Source: Minisyncoccota bacterium (GTDB taxonomy: Bacteria; Patescibacteriota; Minisyncoccia; Phycocordibacterales; UBA9973). From it: DNA of 64,000 nucleotides. The stretch spans positions 154,869-218,868 of the forward strand of contig JBBAAI010000001.1 in the NCBI GenBank assembly GCA_041658325.1. Reading direction: 5' to 3'. Shown piece after piece: positions 3,965-46,137 of this stretch. The notes beneath the pieces are model-generated. The model made no database searches and was not told where the DNA came from. It was given only the letters and a program-made list of their open reading frames with translations. Numbering within the stretch: the first letter of the stretch is position 1; each line of letters opens with the position of its first letter. The position numbers and the translations under genes were made by a program.

Positions 3965-5146
3965 ATGAAGATTATTACAGATGAGAAAAAAATAGAGGAG
4001 GTTTTAACTCGGGGAGTGGAGGAAATTATCGTCCGTAAAGATTTAGAAGAAAAATTAAAATCAGGCAAAATATTACGAATAAAATTAGGAATTGACCCAA
4101 CGAGCCCAGACATTCATATAGGAAGAGCAATTCCTCTTTTGAAGTTGCGAGATTTTCAAGAACTAGGACACAAGATTATTTTTATTGTTGGTGATTTTAC
4201 TGGAGTTATTGGAGATACTTCAGACAAAGACAGTGAAAGGCCAATGCTTTCGGATGAAGTAATAAAGAAAAACATGAAAGATTATGTTGAACAAGCCGGC
4301 AAAATTATTGATTTATCAAAATGTGAGATTTTTTACAACAGTAAATGGTTGAGTAAGTTAACTTATGGTGAGATAGGAGTACAGGCCGACTGTTTTTCTT
4401 TGTCTGATTTTAGTTCCCGTGAAAACATAAAAAGAAGATTAGATGCGGGAAACAGGGTATCTTTGCGCGAAGTTTTATATCCATTAATGCAAGGATATGA
4501 TTCTGTTGCTGTAAAAGCTGATGTGGAGATTGGGGGAACTGACCAAAGGTTTAATTTATTAGCAGGAAGAAAACTGCAAGAAAAATATGGACAAACTTCT
4601 CAAAATATAATAATGAATCCATTACTTATTGGAATTGATGGCAGAAAAATGAGCTCAAGCTGGGGTAACACCATTAATCTTAAAGCAGAACCAAGTGATA
4701 TGTATGGCAAAGTTATGTCTTTGAGTGATAGTCTTATTGTGCAATATTTTGAGCTTACTACTCGCGTACCTATGTCTGAGGTGAAAAAAATAAAAGAAAT
4801 GAATCCACGAGACGCTAAGATGCGTCTTGCTTTTGAAATTGTAAAAATTTATCACGAAGAAAAGAAGGCAAAAAAGGCTGAAGAAAATTTTATTAAAACT
4901 TTTCAAAAAAAAGAAATTCCGGAAGAAATAGAAGAAACAAAATGCAAAAAAGGAGAATTATTAAGTGAAGTTTTAGTAAAAAATAAGATTTTATCTTCAA
5001 AAGGTGAGTGGCGCAGGCTTGTTTTAGAAAATGCTGTTCATAATTTGTTAAAAAATGAAAATATTAAAGATATAAATTTAAAAATTTTAGAAAATTTAAC
5101 TTTAAAAATAGGAAAGAAAAGATTTGTAAAAATTATACAAAAATAA
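3965..5146 (+). CDS. tyrS: tyrosyl-tRNA synthetase
   Basis: HIGH-region motif GIDPTSPDIHIGRAIPL; KMSSS motif; C-terminal S4-like domain. Start taken at MKIITDEKK (3965) rather than ORF-track 3881. Confidence 0.8.
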   Translation: MKIITDEKKIEEVLTRGVEEIIVRKDLEEKLKSGKILRIKLGIDPTSPDIHIGRAIPLLKLRDFQELGHKIIFIVGDFTGVIGDTSDKDSERPMLSDEVIKKNMKDYVEQAGKIIDLSKCEIFYNSKWLSKLTYGEIGVQADCFSLSDFSSRENIKRRLDAGNRVSLREVLYPLMQGYDSVAVKADVEIGGTDQRFNLLAGRKLQEKYGQTSQNIIMNPLLIGIDGRKMSSSWGNTINLKAEPSDMYGKVMSLSDSLIVQYFELTTRVPMSEVKKIKEMNPRDAKMRLAFEIVKIYHEEKKAKKAEENFIKTFQKKEIPEEIEETKCKKGELLSEVLVKNKILSSKGEWRRLVLENAVHNLLKNENIKDINLKILENLTLKIGKKRFVKIIQK

Positions 5147-28585: not shown

Positions 28586-29080
28586 CTAGAATCCTAAAAC
28601 TTCCATGATTTTTTCTGAAGGATGTTCTTTCATTTCAATCTCTGCAATATTTTTTGAAATCATTATTGAATGAATTTCCGTTGCGATAGTTTCGTCTATT
28701 GGGATTGAAAGTATTGGCATAAAGACTCTCTCTAAATTTATAAAAAGAGTTGGTTTTAGCTTAGTTTCTCCTGATGTGTCTAATTGAACCCAAAAAGATT
28801 TTATATTTTCATAAGGACAAAGACGATTTCTGATTTTTAGTCCCTTGGTGTTTAACTCATAGTTAACAATGTCTGGTTTTTTAATTGCAAAAAAGCCTAG
28901 CAAGACTCCCGAGAGTAAAAGAAGCGCTGCAAAAAAATAATTGGCAAAAATAATGGAAGCGATTGAGCTCGTAGCAACAATAATTCCAAGAGCCCAAAAC
29001 CAATCTTGGCTTCTTTCCTTTTCTTCGTATTCTAAAGCGGACCAAGACAATCGATTATTTGAGTTTTCGTTTACATTCAT
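28586..29080 (-). CDS. hypothetical membrane protein (2 TM)
   Basis: 164 aa; two hydrophobic helices near the N-terminus; no motif recognised. Confidence 0.4.
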   Translation of the reverse strand: MNVNENSNNRLSWSALEYEEKERSQDWFWALGIIVATSSIASIIFANYFFAALLLLSGVLLGFFAIKKPDIVNYELNTKGLKIRNRLCPYENIKSFWVQLDTSGETKLKPTLFINLERVFMPILSIPIDETIATEIHSIMISKNIAEIEMKEHPSEKIMEVLGF

Positions 29081-34251: not shown

Positions 34252-34335
34252 GCCCAGGTGGCGAAACTGGTAGACGTACTACCTTGAGGTGGTAGCGCCC
34301 GCAAGGGCATGGGAGTTCAAATCTCCCCCTGGGCA
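34252..34335 (+). tRNA. tRNA-Leu (anticodon GAG)
   Basis: gcccagg acceptor, anticodon stem ctacc/ggtag with loop ttGAGgt, long variable arm, T-arm gggagttcaaatctccc. Confidence 0.8.
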
Positions 34336-34339
34336 CAAA

Positions 34340-41211: not shown

Positions 41212-41637
41212 ATGGCAAAAAAGATAACTAAAAAAATAAAACTACAAATTCAGGCTGCGAAAGCAACTCCAGCGCCACCTTTAGGGCCCGCTCTCGGTCA
41301 GGCTGGTATTAATATTGGAGATTTCGTTACCAAGTTTAATGCTGTCACGGCTAAAATGGCCGGAGACAAAGTCGGTGTTTCTATCACTGTTTACGAAGAT
41401 CGCAGTTATGACTTCGTTGTTAAAACCCCTCCCGTAACTGGTTTAATTCTAAAAGCAGCTGGAGTAGAAAAAGGTTCAGGCAAAAACGCCTCAACTAAAG
41501 TTGGAAAAATAACTAAAGCTCAAGCGCTTGAAATCGCCAATAAGAAACGCGTAGATTTGAATGCTAAAGATGACGAAGGAGCTATCAACATTATTGCTGG
41601 TTCCGCTCGAAGTATGGGCATTGAAATTAAAGACTAA
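41212..41637 (+). CDS. rplK: 50S ribosomal protein L11
   Basis: [27 protein letters not shown] typical L11. Confidence 0.9.
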
Positions 41638-41645
41638 AAGAAAAG

Positions 41646-41675
41646 CCAACGGGAACGTTGGCTTTTTGCTTGATG
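41646..41675 (+). terminator. intrinsic terminator after rplK
   Basis: aaagccaacg ggaa cgttggcttttt. Confidence 0.7.
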
Positions 41676-41691
41676 GGGGTATAATTGTGTT

Positions 41692-42195
41692 ATGAAAAAA
41701 GAAACTAAAAAAGTAGCCAAGCACAAAAGGCCATCTTGGGATGAATATTTCTTACAATTAGCAGAAATAGTCGGGTCTCGTGGAACTTGTGATAGGGGTA
41801 GGGCTGGAGCAGTTATCGTTAAAGATAAAAGAATTTTAGCTACTGGTTATGTTGGGGCGCCCGTGGGGCTTCCAAGTTGTGACGACATAGGACATGAAAT
41901 GCATACAGTTAAAAATGAAGACGGTTCTGAGTCTAGACACTGCATCAGAACTTCACATGCAGAACAAAATGCGATAAACAACGCAGCTAGAGTAGGAGTC
42001 GCAGTAGAAGAAAGCACGATGTATTGCAAAATGGCTCCATGCTATAAATGCGCGCAAAGTATTATTAATTCAGGGATTGTTCGTATTGTGGCCATGAAAG
42101 ATTATCATGGGGCGAACAGAACAAAGGAAATTTTTAAACAAGCCAAAATCAAACTAAGTATTTTGGGAGAAATGCAAATTTATAAAGATATGTAA
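41692..42195 (+). CDS. dCMP deaminase (cytidine/deoxycytidylate deaminase family)
   Basis: Zinc-binding HAEQNAI and PCYKC motifs. Confidence 0.8.
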   Translation: MKKETKKVAKHKRPSWDEYFLQLAEIVGSRGTCDRGRAGAVIVKDKRILATGYVGAPVGLPSCDDIGHEMHTVKNEDGSESRHCIRTSHAEQNAINNAARVGVAVEESTMYCKMAPCYKCAQSIINSGIVRIVAMKDYHGANRTKEIFKQAKIKLSILGEMQIYKDM

Positions 42196-42755: not shown

Positions 42756-44111
42756 CTATTTTAGAACAATATCGTGTTCTCCTCTTTTGATATCAAATCG
42801 GTCTATTTCTTTATCTAAATGTATTACTAACCCAAATTTTCCAAAAAGGTTGAGCAAAGAATCAGCCATCATTTTGGCTTTTTTCCTTAAGGTAGGATGT
42901 ACGAATCTTGTAGCTCGTAATTCCGTTAAATACACCAAAGCGGGGATTCCGCCAGTTAATCTATTTGAAATATTATATCCCATAGCCAGATAGTATTGTC
43001 TTTCCTCTTTAGAAACATTTATTTTTTTGATTTTATCTTCTTGTTTTTCTAAAAATAATTTTGCTTTAGTTCTTAATTCTTCGGGTAGTTCCTCCAGATA
43101 CCATTTTTCGAAACCGATTTCTGGGGTTAAAAGAGGCATTCTTTGAATAACGGCGCGATGTCTTTGGATGTCGCGAAACGATCCGAAATCAAGAAGAAAT
43201 TCAAATTGCAAAGTTCCAGCTTCGCTCAAGTATTTCGGTAATTCTGTTTTTGCAGGTCTATTTTCTAGAATTTTTTTCAGCAATAAACTGGTGTTTATAG
43301 AATTATTCACCATTTTAAAATCTGGACAATTTTTATCGTGATAATAGTAATCTTTTTCCATCCATTCTTTGTTATAATTTTCCGTATTCTCGTAGTGTTC
43401 ATGTCCAAACGAGTTTGGAAAAGCTAAACGCAAAGCCTCTTCTATCGCTTCAGCAACATTTTTAACTTCCTCAAGTGGATGATGACGGAGTAGCATTACT
43501 TTATCCGCTGCTTGTCTTAAATTTGTATGCCAAGCCAAATTTGTTGTTGACCCAGCCGGTAAAAATCCTCTTAATATATCAAAAGCTCTGGCGCTGATAG
43601 CTTTGTCATAAATGATTTCTTTTTCTCCTTCGCCTAGGGGAAATTGTGCCTTTAAATATTTCTTAGTTGGTTCTAATGCTTCAATATAAAACTTTCTGTA
43701 AGCTTCCAATATTTCTTCTCCTTCTTTTGTGCCTAGTGGATTTTTAAATGGTTGAGTTTGAAAATCAATATATCTTGTTGAGGATTCTTGTCCGGAATAT
43801 AAAGGCCAGTCTTGTATGGCTTTCGCTACTAACATTGAAACCCCTTCAATAAATATTGAAGTAGTACCGCAGTCGCCGATAGATTTGTGCCCATAGCCGA
43901 CATAAAAGTTTTTCATAAAATTCTCCGGTCCTTTTTCTGAAAGAATTTTCAAATGATTTTTGAGTCCTCCAGTAGAACGAGAGTGAAGAGCCTGGAGCAT
44001 CGCAGCTGATTCTGGTCCGATGACCGAGCCGGTATCTAAAACGATAACTACGCCGCCTCCTTTTATTTGTGTTTCTGAATGTTTAAGTTCTTCGAGATTT
44101 TTATTTGCCAT
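42756..44111 (-). CDS. ThyX-like flavin-dependent thymidylate synthase, unusually long (451 aa, possibly duplicated domain)
   Basis: RHR motif (FRDIQRHRAVIQR) and S-x-RY (ESSTRYIDF) reminiscent of ThyX; context with dCMP deaminase and dNMP kinase. Motif order is atypical, so the call is tentative. Confidence 0.4.
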   Translation of the reverse strand: MANKNLEELKHSETQIKGGGVVIVLDTGSVIGPESAAMLQALHSRSTGGLKNHLKILSEKGPENFMKNFYVGYGHKSIGDCGTTSIFIEGVSMLVAKAIQDWPLYSGQESSTRYIDFQTQPFKNPLGTKEGEEILEAYRKFYIEALEPTKKYLKAQFPLGEGEKEIIYDKAISARAFDILRGFLPAGSTTNLAWHTNLRQAADKVMLLRHHPLEEVKNVAEAIEEALRLAFPNSFGHEHYENTENYNKEWMEKDYYYHDKNCPDFKMVNNSINTSLLLKKILENRPAKTELPKYLSEAGTLQFEFLLDFGSFRDIQRHRAVIQRMPLLTPEIGFEKWYLEELPEELRTKAKLFLEKQEDKIKKINVSKEERQYYLAMGYNISNRLTGGIPALVYLTELRATRFVHPTLRKKAKMMADSLLNLFGKFGLVIHLDKEIDRFDIKRGEHDIVLK

Positions 44112-44223: not shown

Positions 44224-45495
44224 ATGTATACACACAAAACGGCTCATCCGAAGAAATTTGGAGGCCACACTACTTTTAAAGTGAAACCGCGTTTTGGCGC
44301 GAGTAAATCCGTCCGTCGCCCACACGGTGTTTTTAACGGTTCCCGTTTTAAAAAGGGTGGAAGTAAAAAATCTCGCGGTGAACATATAGATTTTTCACGT
44401 TTCATAAAAAAAGGAACGCACGTAGAAGAAAAGCCATATGTGGCGAAACATACTTTTGCTGATTTTCCTTTTGCTCCGCAACTGCATAAAAATATTGAAA
44501 GGGCAGGATTTAAAGATCCTCGTCCGATACAAGATCAAGCCATTCCGTCAGTCATGAAAGGGCATGATGTTTTCGGCATGGCGAATACTGGTACAGGCAA
44601 GACCGCAGCATTCTTACTTCCGCTTATAGAGAAAATTTATAAAACAAAAGGGCAGAGTAAAAGAGAAACCGTGCTTATCATGGCACCGACGCGCGAGCTC
44701 GCGCTACAAATAGAAAGTGATTTTAAAAATCTCGCTTTTGGTTTCGGTATGTTTTCTGTCGCCTGTGTGGGAGGACTTCCGATCATGAAACAAATTCGCG
44801 AAATAAAAATGGGAGTTTCGTTTATTATCGGTACGCCGGGGCGTTTGCGGGATTTAATAGATAAAAAAGTTTTAGATCTAACTACTTGTCATTCTGTGGT
44901 GCTCGATGAGGCAGATCGAATGCTCGATATGGGTTTTCGTGATGATATGGTTTATATAATTGGTAAGACAGCGAAAGAAAGACAAACCCTTTTCTTCTCT
45001 GCGACCCTTTCTCCAGAAATTAAAAAATTAACCGAACATTATTTAAAAGAACCAATTTTTATTTCGGTTATTTCTGGCGAGACGGCAAAAAATATTGATC
45101 AAGATGTTATTCGGGTGAAAAGTACTGCCGAAAAAATAGAAAAGCTACACGAAGTTTTGAAAAAAGACGGTTCGGACAAAGTTCTCATTTTTCGAGAGAT
45201 GAAACACAGTGTGGATACACTAGCGAAAGAGCTTGCGCATATGGGTTTCAAAGTCGGGGCGATTCATGGCGACAAAAGAAGTCGTGAGCGTATCCGTATT
45301 CTTGATTCATTCAAAAAAGATAAAATTAATATTTTGATTGCGACTGACGTCGCTGCACGCGGACTGGATATCCCAGACGTGACGCATGTTATCAATTACG
45401 ACGTGCCACAAACTTACGATACTTATGTGCACCGCATCGGCCGAACTGGCCGCTCTGGTAAAAAGGGAAATGCCTTAACCTTTGTTCCTGCGTAA
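44224..45495 (+). CDS. DEAD-box ATP-dependent RNA helicase with basic N-terminal extension
   Basis: Q-motif, GTGKTAAF, DEAD (VLDEADRM), SAT, HRIGRTGR motifs. Confidence 0.85.
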   Translation: MYTHKTAHPKKFGGHTTFKVKPRFGASKSVRRPHGVFNGSRFKKGGSKKSRGEHIDFSRFIKKGTHVEEKPYVAKHTFADFPFAPQLHKNIERAGFKDPRPIQDQAIPSVMKGHDVFGMANTGTGKTAAFLLPLIEKIYKTKGQSKRETVLIMAPTRELALQIESDFKNLAFGFGMFSVACVGGLPIMKQIREIKMGVSFIIGTPGRLRDLIDKKVLDLTTCHSVVLDEADRMLDMGFRDDMVYIIGKTAKERQTLFFSATLSPEIKKLTEHYLKEPIFISVISGETAKNIDQDVIRVKSTAEKIEKLHEVLKKDGSDKVLIFREMKHSVDTLAKELAHMGFKVGAIHGDKRSRERIRILDSFKKDKINILIATDVAARGLDIPDVTHVINYDVPQTYDTYVHRIGRTGRSGKKGNALTFVPA

Positions 45496-45544
45496 AAACA
45501 AATTTTTTAGTGGTATTGCAAAAAAAATAATATATGCTAAATTA

Positions 45545-45850
45545 ATTTCCAGATGCACAACAGGTTAGCCATCGTCTTATTCGTCGTCCTTCGACCTCTA
45601 GGGGCCAGGACAAAACCAGTCATCAGGCTGCAACCCAAGAGGTAGTAGCCAACACAAAGAAAGAGAGGTGTAACCTCGGCGGGCGCAAGTGGATTGGGAC
45701 TCCACAATCACGTGATCGGGTTCGACTCCCGCATCCATGGCAACATGGAAGGGCTGTGGTTAAGTCCGCTACGAACAAGAAAATCCGAAATCCCCGGAAC
45801 CAAGAACCAAGGGGGTGCTGGCAAGCCGGCACCCCCTAATTTTTTTTAAT
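45545..45850 (+). ncRNA. unassigned ~300-nt structured RNA with own promoter and terminator; contains tRNA-like T-arm (candidate tmRNA-like or other)
   Basis: Sigma70-like ttgcaa-N17-tatgct at about 45513-45536; GC-rich body; GGGUUCGACUCCCG T-arm-like hairpin (45717-45731); ccatg GCAA catgg GNRA hairpin; terminal gggggtgctggcaagccggcaccccc + T8 terminator; no long ORF. Confidence 0.4.
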
Positions 45851-45856
45851 TAACTA

Positions 45857-45884
45857 AAAAATCCACCACTGGTGGATTTTTGTT
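45857..45884 (-). terminator. intrinsic terminator after rpmB
   Basis: aaaaatccacca(g/c)tggtggattttt palindromic hairpin flanked by A/T runs. Confidence 0.7.
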
Positions 45885-45885
45885 T

Positions 45886-46137
45886 TTATTTTGCTTGTAT
45901 TAGTTCGGCCTTGAGGAGGGTGGCGTAGACGCCGTTTTTGTTCATGGTGCGTATGCCACGAGCGGAGATTTCAATATTTACAGTTTTATTTAATTCAGGC
46001 ACAAAAAAGCGCTTCTTTTGAAGATTTGGATATTTTCTCTTTTTGCCGGTCGGGTTAAATTTCGTGGCACGAGTCCTGTTTGAGTATCCGCCTCCGACGA
46101 TTGAACCCTTTTTTGTTATTGCACATACTTTCTTCAT
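45886..46137 (-). CDS. rpmB: 50S ribosomal protein L28
   Basis: 83 aa; MKKVCAITKKGSIVGGGYSNRTRATKF typical L28. Confidence 0.8.
   Translation of the reverse strand: MKKVCAITKKGSIVGGGYSNRTRATKFNPTGKKRKYPNLQKKRFFVPELNKTVNIEISARGIRTMNKNGVYATLLKAELIQAK

Follow-up and report, generated by a model that had tools for sequence, protein, structure and literature searches.

What kind of gene occupies the gap between a DEAD-box helicase gene and the convergent ribosomal protein L28 gene (rpmB) in a Candidatus Nomurabacteria genome (Parcubacteria/Paceibacterota, candidate phyla radiation (CPR))? Very few non-coding RNAs have been characterised in this reduced CPR genome. The original prediction for this gap, made within the 64,000-nucleotide stretch of DNA analysed here (the window), described a GC-rich segment without a long open reading frame (ORF), encoding a structured RNA of about 300 nt. 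Three identities were proposed: a permuted tmRNA, a different tRNA-like RNA or something new. Our evidence favours the latter two, pointing to an unassigned structured RNA with tRNA-like elements.

Gene signals in the helicase–rpmB gap

Pfam searches confirmed both predicted neighbours, the helicase gene upstream (44224-45495, + strand) and the convergent L28 gene downstream (45886-46137, - strand). The wider neighbourhood encodes ThyX, the DEAD-box helicase, L28, an M50 peptidase, S12 and S7. As a side observation, the host genome has no L1 gene beside L11. Comparison with related loci identified two homologous RNA genes, L003 and L026, each from another species. The gap probably holds an independently transcribed non-coding small RNA gene of ~300 nt with its own promoter and terminator. 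Its predicted transcript appears, with comparable confidence, to be built from four parts, namely a 5' domain, an element rich in purines, the tRNA-like module (91 nt) and, last, an A-rich tail ending in an intrinsic terminator. The features are as follows.

45516..45543, + strand: promoter, with a -35 element TTGCAA (45516-21), a 16-nt spacer and an extended -10 element TGcTAAATT (45535-43)
45550..45847, + strand: whole predicted transcript, ~298 nt, its ends placed from the promoter and terminator
45556..45677, + strand: 5' domain, given the same architecture by minimum free energy (MFE) folds of the window and L003
45659..45670, + strand: purine-rich element, GAAAGAGAGGTG, conserved in all three homologues
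45679..45769, + strand: tRNA-like module, 91 nt, closed by helix X and defined by comparison with L026
45784..45798, + strand: small hairpin TCCG-AAATCCC-CGGA in the A-rich 3' tail, an MFE prediction only
45810..45847, + strand: intrinsic terminator, with a 12-bp stem, a 4-nt loop and then T8
45857..45881, no strand assigned: second, bidirectional terminator, AAAAATCCACCACTGGTGGATTTTT, outside the RNA

The predicted base composition held up, with a G+C content of 54% in the RNA versus 36% in the whole window, and three-frame translations revealed no conserved ORF common to the three RNAs. The terminator was likewise recovered by a terminator scan. Its stem, AGGGGGTGCTGG-CAAG-CCGGCACCCCCT at 45810-45837, has 12 pairs, 9 of them G-C, and is followed by T8 at 45840-45847; it is confined to the + strand, since no T-run follows the stem on the reverse strand. 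L003 carries a homologous G+C-rich terminator with a GCAA loop. The second terminator lies outside the RNA and is most likely that of rpmB. Folding agreed with this orientation: relative to shuffled sequence, the + strand is more stable (z = -2.27), unlike the - strand (z = -1.03).

The predicted sigma70-like promoter fared less evenly. A comparable arrangement (TTGCAA/G, 16-17 nt, TGnTATATT/TATATA) lies upstream of the homologous RNAs in L003 and L026, so that position and sequence are kept in three species (consensus TTGCAA, 16-17 nt, TGnTAWAWW). However, a generic sigma-70 scan reported no promoter site at the locus, because the match covers only 8 of 12 positions, and the promoter is the weakest of the originally listed features. 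Transcription would start at about 45550. A-rich inverted repeats flank the gene; we considered them as transposon ends and rejected this, as they are A/T-rich terminator-type sequence and poorly kept in L003.

The 5' domain folds into a long closing helix (~45562-45580 with 45655-45676) around two inner hairpins (45586-45611 and 45626-45650). Its conserved start, GCACAACAGG, is common to the window and L003; L026 is without the domain. RNAalifold pairs the 5' GCAC with GUGU of the purine-rich element, a pairing in which the window and L003 differ by one U-A to A-U change. The purine-rich element itself reads GAAAGGGAGGTG in L003 and GAAAGGAGGTG in L026, and it is complementary to CACCUCCUUUC, which we take to be the canonical 3' tail of bacterial 16S rRNA and which may differ from the host's own. 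We rejected it as a ribosome-binding site: no copy has a start codon at a usable distance after it, and Shine-Dalgarno (SD) sequences are hardly used in the host genome (5 of 52 genes). At the other end of the RNA, the tail AAGAAAATCCGAAATC aligns by reading with the L003 tail GAGAAAAATACTAAATC.

Fold and covariation of the tRNA-like module

The module comprises five helices arranged in two stacked three-way junctions, X/H/Y and Y/T-arm/acceptor.

45679-84 with 45764-69, + strand: helix X, GCGGGC with GTCCGC, the closing helix
45689..45705, + strand: hairpin H, anticodon-arm-like, with a 5-bp stem GTGGA/TCCAC and a 7-nt loop TTGGGAC
45706-11 with 45756-61 (45706..45761), + strand: helix Y, AATCAC with GTGGTT, enclosing the T-arm and capped acceptor
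45717..45731, + strand: T-arm, CGGG-TTCGACT-CCCG, with a canonical T-loop
45734..45749, + strand: 'acceptor' helix, 6 bp TCCATG/CATGGA, with the GNRA tetraloop GCAA

Among these, the T-arm and the GCAA-capped hairpin, (T)CCATG-GCAA-CATGG(A), match the original description exactly. From the capped helix, a linker containing GG (AGGGCT, 45750-55) leads into helix Y. A free end, CCA and G:U pairs are all missing from the 'acceptor'. Both species seal it with a GNRA tetraloop of differing sequence, GCAA in the window and GAGA in L026.

Covariation with a homologue from a related CPR genome, which had been proposed as a check, supports this fold. In a structural alignment of 29 pairs (96.6% paired), 10 of the 29 had both partners replaced without loss of pairing, and no pair had a single partner replaced; this is one pairwise comparison (the window and its identical copy L091 against L026 and its identical copy L116) on a hand-fitted alignment, since only two independent sequences carry the module. 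The compensatory changes fall in every helix: three in helix X, one in hairpin H (A-U to G-C, giving GTGGG-CTGGGAA-CCCAC in L026), one in helix Y, whose other five pairs are invariant, two in the T-arm (AGAGG-TTCGACT-CCTCT) and three in the 'acceptor' (TTCCTA-GAGA-TAGGAA). Within the loop of hairpin H, UGGGA is conserved (consensus YUGGGAM). Control alignments slid out of register gave 0-1 such pairs, and none of 500 shuffles reached the observed value.

Other predictions converge on the same helices. RNAalifold recovered X, H, Y and T from a plain MAFFT alignment, and the MFE structure of L026 shows exactly these five helices (32% of the ensemble), so that helix Y was predicted independently by both. 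The module alone folds no better than shuffled sequence (z = -0.8 in the window, -1.7 in L026), and helices X and Y have a competitor in the window, an alternative D-arm-like hairpin (GGGC-TGTGGTTAA-GTCC). We dropped a D hairpin like that of YrlA, a bacterial Y RNA (GCTG/CCGC or GGGC/GTCC), as it fails at the homologous columns in L026, and a standard cloverleaf using the purine-rich element as the acceptor 5' strand, which is unsupported in the window.

We also scanned ~0.7 Mb on both strands with a descriptor requiring a T-loop hairpin and, no more than 4 nt after it, a hairpin of >=5 bp capped by a tetraloop. Hits with a tRNA-type T-arm occurred only at the locus, at its identical copy L091 and in L026; the combination of T-arm and capped hairpin is more than chance. 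At the level of sequence, the module also behaves as a discrete unit, because L003 has the promoter, 5' start, purine-rich element, tail and terminator and is missing exactly the segment bounded by helix X.

Family membership and distribution

The RNA belongs to no tmRNA form, tRNA or Rfam family. Rfam 15 (4227 models) gave no family match at the gathering score in the window and 12 related loci. At E<=10, cmscan of the locus and L026 returned nothing relevant: terminator look-alikes, Tymo_tRNA-like (13.5 bits and E = 3 at the locus, a chance-level score) and tRNA-Sec, the best clan match, which aligns weakly to L026 using the purine-rich element as acceptor strand (19 bits versus a gathering score of 47). 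The tmRNA and permuted-tmRNA covariance models had no match at that threshold in either sequence, nor did the Rfam tRNA model have one. ARAGORN, which also models permuted forms and had been named as a check, called neither tRNA nor tmRNA at the locus, and no tmRNA in the window or 60 related loci. Thus neither of the two findings singled out beforehand as refuting the original prediction, a significant Rfam hit and a conserved ORF, emerged.

The module does not form a tRNA cloverleaf with a free 7-bp acceptor and a D-arm; only its anticodon-like arm and T-arm are canonical. The G3:U70 alanine identity pair and CCA are absent from the acceptor in the window and L026, and three-frame translations yielded no tag reading frame common to the three RNAs and no tag-like Ala-Ala ending. 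tRNA genes split by group I introns have been described for Patescibacteria (bioRxiv 10.1101/2025.07.03.662931); we rejected such a gene here, as the hairpin loop is intact and no intron model matches. Our literature search on tRNA-like RNAs or tmRNA in Patescibacteria/Parcubacteria found nothing describing this RNA.

The gene is rare and patchy. It is present in 3 of ~90 related loci, at the same position in all three species, and absent from ~87 of the 90 syntenic loci, including a sister lineage with a 99% identical helicase. Carriers are the window, L026 (the only independent module-bearing homologue of the window) and L003, which has no module. nhmmer and blastn (word size 7) with the RNA gave no significant match in 80 syntenic loci; the L026 and L003 homologues were found only by reading intergenic gaps. 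A covariance model (R1) trained on the two module sequences scores 92 bits at the window module and, over 667 kb, matched only its two training sequences. The pattern TGGGA..ATCACGT..GTTCRANTC, scanned against metagenome contigs, matched 10 times, each time by chance or in an ordinary tRNA. Viral contigs searched by pattern yielded only phage tRNAs, including the tRNA-Pro that prompted the ancestry comparison below. A blastn search against a phage collection produced no match, and contigs reached through L28 and helicase relatives held only the identical copies L091 and L116 and loci without the RNA. Because the gene is absent from the sister lineage and most relatives, it is dispensable and could be drifting.

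Candidate functions and known tRNA mimics

We consider it probable, as a structural model, that the RNA is a novel variant among small RNAs that mimic tRNA and cannot be charged. The canonical T-arm stacks on the 6-bp GNRA-sealed 'acceptor', the GG linker runs into helix Y, and the anticodon-arm-like hairpin with its YUGGGAM loop abuts that helix. This layout corresponds to the three-way junction of the tmRNA tRNA-like domain, circularly permuted as in two-piece tmRNA genes and YrlA. Such an RNA could not be aminoacylated, because its acceptor end is closed and carries neither CCA nor alanine identity. If expressed and folded into the L-shape that this model supposes, the RNA would present a tRNA 'elbow' (T-loop plus GG linker) and the anticodon-arm-like hairpin to a tRNA-binding partner, acting as a decoy or tether on a small-RNA scaffold. 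A counterpoint to this reading is that L003 does without the module.

Of the alternatives, decay is the first to weigh, and we judge it unlikely. The locus would then be the remnant of a tRNA-Pro pseudogene or a recombination scar in a variable intergenic hot spot, possibly transcribed and functionless. A helicase–rpmB gap ranging from 3 to 2725 nt across relatives, the flanking inverted repeats, the small number of carriers, the absence from a very close relative and the module-free L003 would all suit such an origin. Against it, 10 of 10 varying pairs kept pairing while the surroundings diverged beyond BLAST or nhmmer detection, both species retained a GNRA cap despite its changed sequence, the promoter and terminator persisted, and G+C stands 18 points over the genome background.

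A YrlA-type Y RNA would use its tRNA-like domain as effector while another part binds Ro60 (Rsr) and tethers it to a nuclease. YrlA combines a T-arm and a closed-loop acceptor stem in a permuted tRNA-like domain (PMC4201824; bioRxiv 10.1101/312249), and we found that combination here, together with the 6-bp acceptor length, upstream hairpin and tRNA-derived permuted layout; L003, itself without the module, has two matches to the Ro-binding motif in the form GNCGAAG. Yet membership in this class is rather improbable. The motif (GNCGAAN0-1G) is absent from the window RNA and L026 by regular-expression search. Neither a Ro60 (TROVE, rsr) gene nor another obviously linked protein was found near the RNA gene; specifically, no TROVE gene lies within 3 kb or among the 20 large window ORFs scanned. 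The conserved D stem-loop joined to the acceptor by UA is likewise lacking, a D-arm-like hairpin being drawable in the window only and the aligned positions forming helices X and Y. Finally, Rfam gave no match at E<=10, and the RNA is two to three times longer than a typical YrlA.

Two further readings look to neighbouring genes or to the ribosome, and both are very unlikely. As a cis element, the RNA would be a structure in the helicase mRNA 3' untranslated region or a terminator-controlled antisense RNA interfering with convergent rpmB. No terminator separates the helicase stop codon from the RNA, the RNA ends 40 nt from the rpmB 3' end, and its position is the same in all three species. But a conserved promoter belongs to the RNA itself, a tandem pair of terminators stands between it and rpmB, and most relatives, the sister lineage included, regulate the same two genes without it. 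With no better prospects, the RNA might instead found a ribosome-associated class in CPR bacteria that hardly use SD sequences, serving as an RNA-only translation modulator or hibernation factor. Here the purine element GAAAG(N)GAGGUG (11-12 nt) would anchor the RNA to the otherwise unused 30S anti-SD, and the closed tRNA-like module, with its anticodon-arm-like hairpin and elbow, would occupy or probe a tRNA site. Complementarity to the canonical 16S 3' tail is perfect for the L026 element; a 5' strand that looks like the anti-SD is predicted, in both the window and L003, to pair with and mask the element, so 16S binding could be switchable.

More doubtful still is a small protein encoded on a nearly leaderless mRNA, with RNA structure secondary. 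The window has a 30-aa ORF (45553-45645, MHNRLAIVLFVVLRPLGARTKPVIRLQPKR) whose ATG lies 9 nt past the -10 element, and many host genes have TATAAT ~6 nt before their ATG, which suggests leaderless translation in this genome. L026 also has a 30-aa ORF that starts near its inferred transcription start and was called by a gene caller. However, the two ORFs are unrelated, the window's covering the 5' domain and that of L026 the tRNA-like module; the homologous ATG is AAG in L003; and no gene was called at the RNA in the identical copy L091. A 29-aa gene already called over one of these loci is spurious. The conserved blocks ATCACGT and GGTTCGACTCC, the latter an 11-mer present in both copies, are separated by 12 nt in the window and by 10 nt in L026, which puts them in different frames.

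The permuted-tmRNA option named in the original prediction, in which the acceptor loop would be excised by RNase P and 3' processing and CCA added for stalled-ribosome rescue, is already largely refuted and has the slimmest chance of any reading: the order of elements (helix 3' strand, T-arm, acceptor 3' strand, loop, acceptor 5' strand, GG linker as D-loop surrogate, helix 5' strand in the place of P2, 3' sequence) does fit, although as a resemblance of order only, ARAGORN found no tmRNA elsewhere in the 64-kb window and tmRNA forms without a CDS are on record (PMC11915505), but both species close the acceptor with a GNRA tetraloop of 4 nt and have neither encoded CCA nor an intervening segment, acceptor pairs C-G/A-U/U-A (window) and U-A/A-U/G-C (L026) exclude G3:U70, there is no common tag ORF, the L026 3' tail has only ~40 nt before its terminator, ARAGORN and the tmRNA-family covariance models are silent, and the universal distribution expected of this housekeeping RNA fails, the gene missing from the sister lineage and the tRNA-like domain from L003.

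The preferred reading, a closed tRNA mimic, would matter in several ways. Bacteria have, to our knowledge, few non-chargeable tRNA mimics, the only established class being the YrlA Y RNAs. The partners of such mimics point to reuse of the tRNA shape in RNA quality control; if this RNA is a second, independently derived closed mimic, built here on the three-way-junction plan of the tmRNA tRNA-like domain, the same solution evolved more than once. It would then offer a handle for finding a tRNA-elbow-binding factor, and the covariance model lets annotators label loci missed by tRNA, tmRNA and Rfam tools.

Known systems resemble the RNA to different degrees. Viral 3' tRNA-like structures and mascRNA share the general idea of an RNA domain imitating the tRNA L-shape; in those, unlike here, the ends are free, processable or chargeable, or RNase P releases the RNA. 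Hairpin H, the linker and the T-arm taken together (stem-YUGGGAM-stem, AAUC.., GGUUCGACUCC) are reminiscent of tRNA-Pro over its 3' two-thirds, specifically of tRNA-Pro(UGG) sequences, and the T-loop is canonical. This resemblance makes a tRNA-Pro origin of the module possible. The 11-mer GGTTCGACTCC in both copies and the weak tRNA-Sec alignment of L026 also speak for descent from a tRNA. The module differs from tRNA-Pro in having no cloverleaf, in D-arm strands rewired into helices X and Y, in its closed acceptor and in a UGGGA loop with A where tRNA-Pro has G37.

Closer in architecture, the tmRNA tRNA-like domain shares a three-way junction of acceptor, T-arm and third helix (P2a in tmRNA, Y here) and a D-loop surrogate that contains GG and joins the acceptor 5' strand to that helix; permuted, two-piece tmRNA genes (RF01849-51 and the merged permuted model) add the same element order. 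Unlike tmRNA, which is universal, the RNA is dispensable and patchy, with a GNRA-sealed acceptor and no CCA, G3:U70, tag frame or pseudoknots. Like YrlA (PMC4201824; bioRxiv 10.1101/312249), it has a tRNA-derived design with a canonical T-arm stacked on a closed 6-bp 'acceptor' without CCA, a hairpin preceding the T-arm (in YrlA, the 'V' arm) and a permuted order in which the RNA ends leave via another helix; like YrlA, it would be a non-chargeable tRNA mimic. It departs from YrlA in replacing the conserved D stem-loop with a GG-containing single strand and helix Y, in keeping an intact anticodon-arm-like hairpin with a 7-nt loop, and in extending to ~300 nt with a 5' domain and a purine-rich element.

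A candidate RNA gene between the helicase and rpmB genes

The gap between a DEAD-box helicase gene and the convergent L28 gene (rpmB) carries a candidate small RNA gene of ~300 nt (window 45550-45847, +). Pfam confirmed both neighbours named in the original prediction, and the T-arm, GCAA hairpin and T8-tailed terminator that it listed are all present.

Features of the locus (window coordinates)
44224-45495, +: DEAD-box helicase gene, upstream neighbour (Pfam)
45516-45543: putative promoter, TTGCAA, 16-nt spacer, TGcTAAATT (recurs before two homologous genes)
45717-45731: T-arm CGGG-TTCGACT-CCCG (sequence)
45734-45749: hairpin TCCATG-GCAA-CATGGA (sequence)
45810-45837: terminator, 12 bp, G+C-rich, then T8 (terminator scan)
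45886-46137, -: L28 gene, convergent with the RNA gene (Pfam)

The segment is G+C-rich as described (54% versus 36% for the window), and its + strand folds better than shuffled sequence (z = -2.3), whereas the - strand does not (z = -1.0). A generic scan called no promoter at the locus, but the same TTGCAA/spacer/-10 arrangement precedes both homologous genes, at the related loci L026 and L003. Because it recurs there, we accept the originally proposed promoter as a predicted promoter of the extended -10 type, from which transcription would begin near 45550.

Scanning the window with Rfam 15 cmscan returned only six ordinary tRNAs, all away from the locus; in E-value mode, the locus gave nothing beyond chance matches caused by terminators and Tymo_tRNA-like at E = 3. 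ARAGORN called seven tRNAs in the window, none of them at the locus, and no tmRNA. No significant Rfam match explains the RNA, and its description as unassigned holds. One ARAGORN call, tRNA-Leu(GAG) at 34252-34336, is unreported by the Rfam tRNA model at gathering score.

Elsewhere in the window, a dCMP deaminase gene stands after the L11 gene (41212-41637), where rplA, the L1 gene, is usual (region 41212-42195); some Parcubacteria reportedly lack L1. At 42756-44111 (-), a 451-aa protein, about twice the usual ThyX length, matches the Thy1 (ThyX) domain only over residues 48-233. Several relatives have a classical thymidylate synthase (PF00303) in its place.

Homologues in a variable gap

All 80 helicase relatives from the genome collection are Candidatus Nomurabacteria or Paceibacterota (CPR). 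L28 follows the helicase convergently in 77, across gaps of 3-2725 nt. This gap is a variable hot spot whose small ORFs and short elements differ by species. Neither nhmmer nor blastn found homologues of the RNA; two were then found by reading the gaps.

Homologous RNA genes
L026, 4357-4520: same promoter type, purine element GAAAGGAGGTG
L003, 4297-4492: same promoter, 5' start GCACAACAGG, element GAAAGGGAGGTG

The L026 core is visibly homologous (GTGGG-CTGGGAA-CCCAC, TATCACGT, AGAGG-TTCGACT-CCTCT, TTCCTA-GAGA-TAGGAA). The L003 RNA has an A-rich tail similar to that of the window and a GCAA-looped terminator, and lacks the entire tRNA-like part. Two further copies are identical to known ones (L091 to the window, L116 to L026), and the family presently has two to three members. 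No further independent members emerged from pattern scans of metagenome and viral contigs, BLAST against phages, 11 contig look-ups through L28 and helicase relatives, or a covariance-model search of 667 kb of sequence. The helicase at L115 shares 99% protein and 92% DNA identity with that of the window, yet its gap is 70 nt long and has no RNA gene. We conclude that the gene is rare, patchily distributed and dispensable.

Comparing window 45496-45885 with L001-L080 and L110-L120 revealed unrelated small ORFs by species: a Cys-rich ORF of ~80 aa (L005), small ORFs (L018, L049, L071), a PaaX_M gene (L113) and a 156-aa ORF (L119). A second conserved element of ~80-100 nt, TTTTTGTCGGTACGGATTTTTYGAAG.TT.AAAAATCC..GAAAT..CTCGCCG.CG..C...CCTTAAAA, is found in this gap in four species; a further small RNA is one possible identity, a small mobile or palindromic element another.

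Second gap element
L011, 4249-4364, +
L024, 4264-4418, +
L066, 4234-4372, +
L118, 2836-2955, reverse-complemented

Inverted repeats also lie either side of the RNA gene (window 45493-45511 and 45853-45888). The left copy, TAAAAACAAA/ATTTTTTAGT, starts at the helicase stop codon and resembles a terminator without its stem; the right complement, ACTAAAAAAT...TTTGTTTTTA, is interrupted by the hairpin of a bidirectional terminator and ends at the rpmB stop codon. They may be an insertion trace, or merely A/T-rich terminator sequence.

Fold of the tRNA-like module

From a plain MAFFT alignment of two 93-nt segments, RNAalifold predicted four helices with covariation. For L026, the minimum-free-energy structure shows five helices cleanly and makes up 32% of the ensemble.

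Helices of the 91-nt module (window 45679-45769)
45679-84 with 45764-69: helix X, closes the module
45689-93 with 45701-05: helix H, loop TTGGGAC
45706-11 with 45756-61: helix Y, encloses T-arm and acceptor
45717-20 with 45728-31: T-arm, canonical T-loop
45734-39 with 45744-49: acceptor, GCAA loop

A structure-guided alignment of the window with L026 contains 29 pairs, 96.6% paired, with two cells unpaired. In this hand-fitted alignment of only two sequences, 10 pairs changed on both sides with pairing kept and none on one side only; helix Y holds a single covarying pair. Sliding partners by 1-3 columns left 0-1 such pairs, and none of 500 shuffles reached the observed values. The covariation with this CPR relative upholds the original view of a structured RNA, and we consider a real RNA with this five-helix fold quite probable. 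Its layout is two stacked three-way junctions; at the distal one, 0-2 nt separate the T-arm from the capped helix and a GG-containing linker of 6-7 nt leads into Y. Because L003 lacks exactly the X-bounded segment, it independently supports helix X as the predicted boundary of a discrete module.

Origin, role and alternative readings

Viral contigs carry phage tRNA-Pro(UGG) genes built as stem-UUUGGGA-stem-AAAUC-ACUGG-UUCGAAU, closely paralleling the H-linker-T stretch of the module, and L026 gives a weak alignment to the tRNA-Sec model. These likenesses point to a tRNA ancestor for the module, probably tRNA-Pro. Strands of the D-region and variable loop would have changed partners to form helices X and Y, and the acceptor would have gained its cap. 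That the RNA is merely a decaying tRNA remnant seems unlikely.

A Y RNA of the YrlA type is rather improbable: we found no TROVE gene nearby and no GNCGAAN0-1G in either module-bearing RNA, and the D stem-loop is unconserved. The module-less L003 RNA has two copies of GNCGAAG (at 4361 and 4438), a motif that the Ro60-binding strand of YrlA is reported to carry; ~0.1 matches per 196 nt are expected by chance, and the window and L026 RNAs have none. A cis element, as opposed to a stand-alone RNA, is very unlikely.

Coding was weighed next to the original remark that there is no long ORF, and no conserved ORF appeared. The spacing of the conserved blocks ATCACGT and GGTTCGACTCC is 12 nt in the window and 10 nt in L026, which puts them in different frames. 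Near their 5' ends the window and L026 RNAs have 30-aa ORFs, unrelated to each other, and in L003 the ATG reads AAG. By these comparisons the RNA is non-coding; a small protein, such as a near-leaderless window peptide, keeps a slim chance because TATAAT often lies ~6 nt ahead of ATG in this genome. A 29-aa protein that a public gene caller placed on the 5' part of the L026 RNA, extending through the tRNA-like module (L116 2857-2946, equal to L026 4357-4446), is probably spurious.

In the window and L003, a long helix closes the 5' domain. Within this helix the purine element GAAAG(N)GAGGTG (window 45659-45670) is base-paired to a pyrimidine-rich strand lying upstream. Its sequence is complementary to the 16S 3' tail in its canonical bacterial form. 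We rejected it as an ordinary ribosome-binding site because no start codon follows and only 5 of 52 window genes have a Shine-Dalgarno-like tetramer (GGAG/GAGG/AGGA/GGTG) within 22 nt upstream. Many window genes have TATAAT ~6-8 nt ahead of ATG (for example 28586-29080, 30366, 34580 and 41692); together with the few tetramers, this suggests widely leaderless or Shine-Dalgarno-independent initiation.

The tRNA-like domain of tmRNA comprises acceptor P1, T-arm P12, helix P2a and a D-loop surrogate. The module follows the same plan, its elements in a circularly permuted order like that of two-piece tmRNA genes (a comparison drawing on PMC11915505 and established tmRNA knowledge). This order is what stands of the permuted tmRNA originally suggested; membership is hardly credible, as a 4-nt GNRA loop seals the acceptor in the window and L026, leaving no CCA or spacer in either species, the acceptor helix has no G:U pair, the RNAs share no reading frame, the L026 3' tail leaves no room for a coding piece, ARAGORN and covariance models were negative, and a sister lineage lacks the gene, unexpectedly for a housekeeping gene.

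The RNA thus falls outside every family considered; its kind, tRNA-mimicking non-coding RNA, is already known. On balance we favour a stand-alone structured small RNA with a non-chargeable tRNA-mimic module. Its function we propose only tentatively: the module would offer a tRNA-binding factor both a tRNA elbow and an anticodon-arm-like hairpin, serving as a decoy or tether, an idea modelled on YrlA and the tRNA-like domain of tmRNA. If so, this CPR lineage would have a closed tRNA mimic of a second type.
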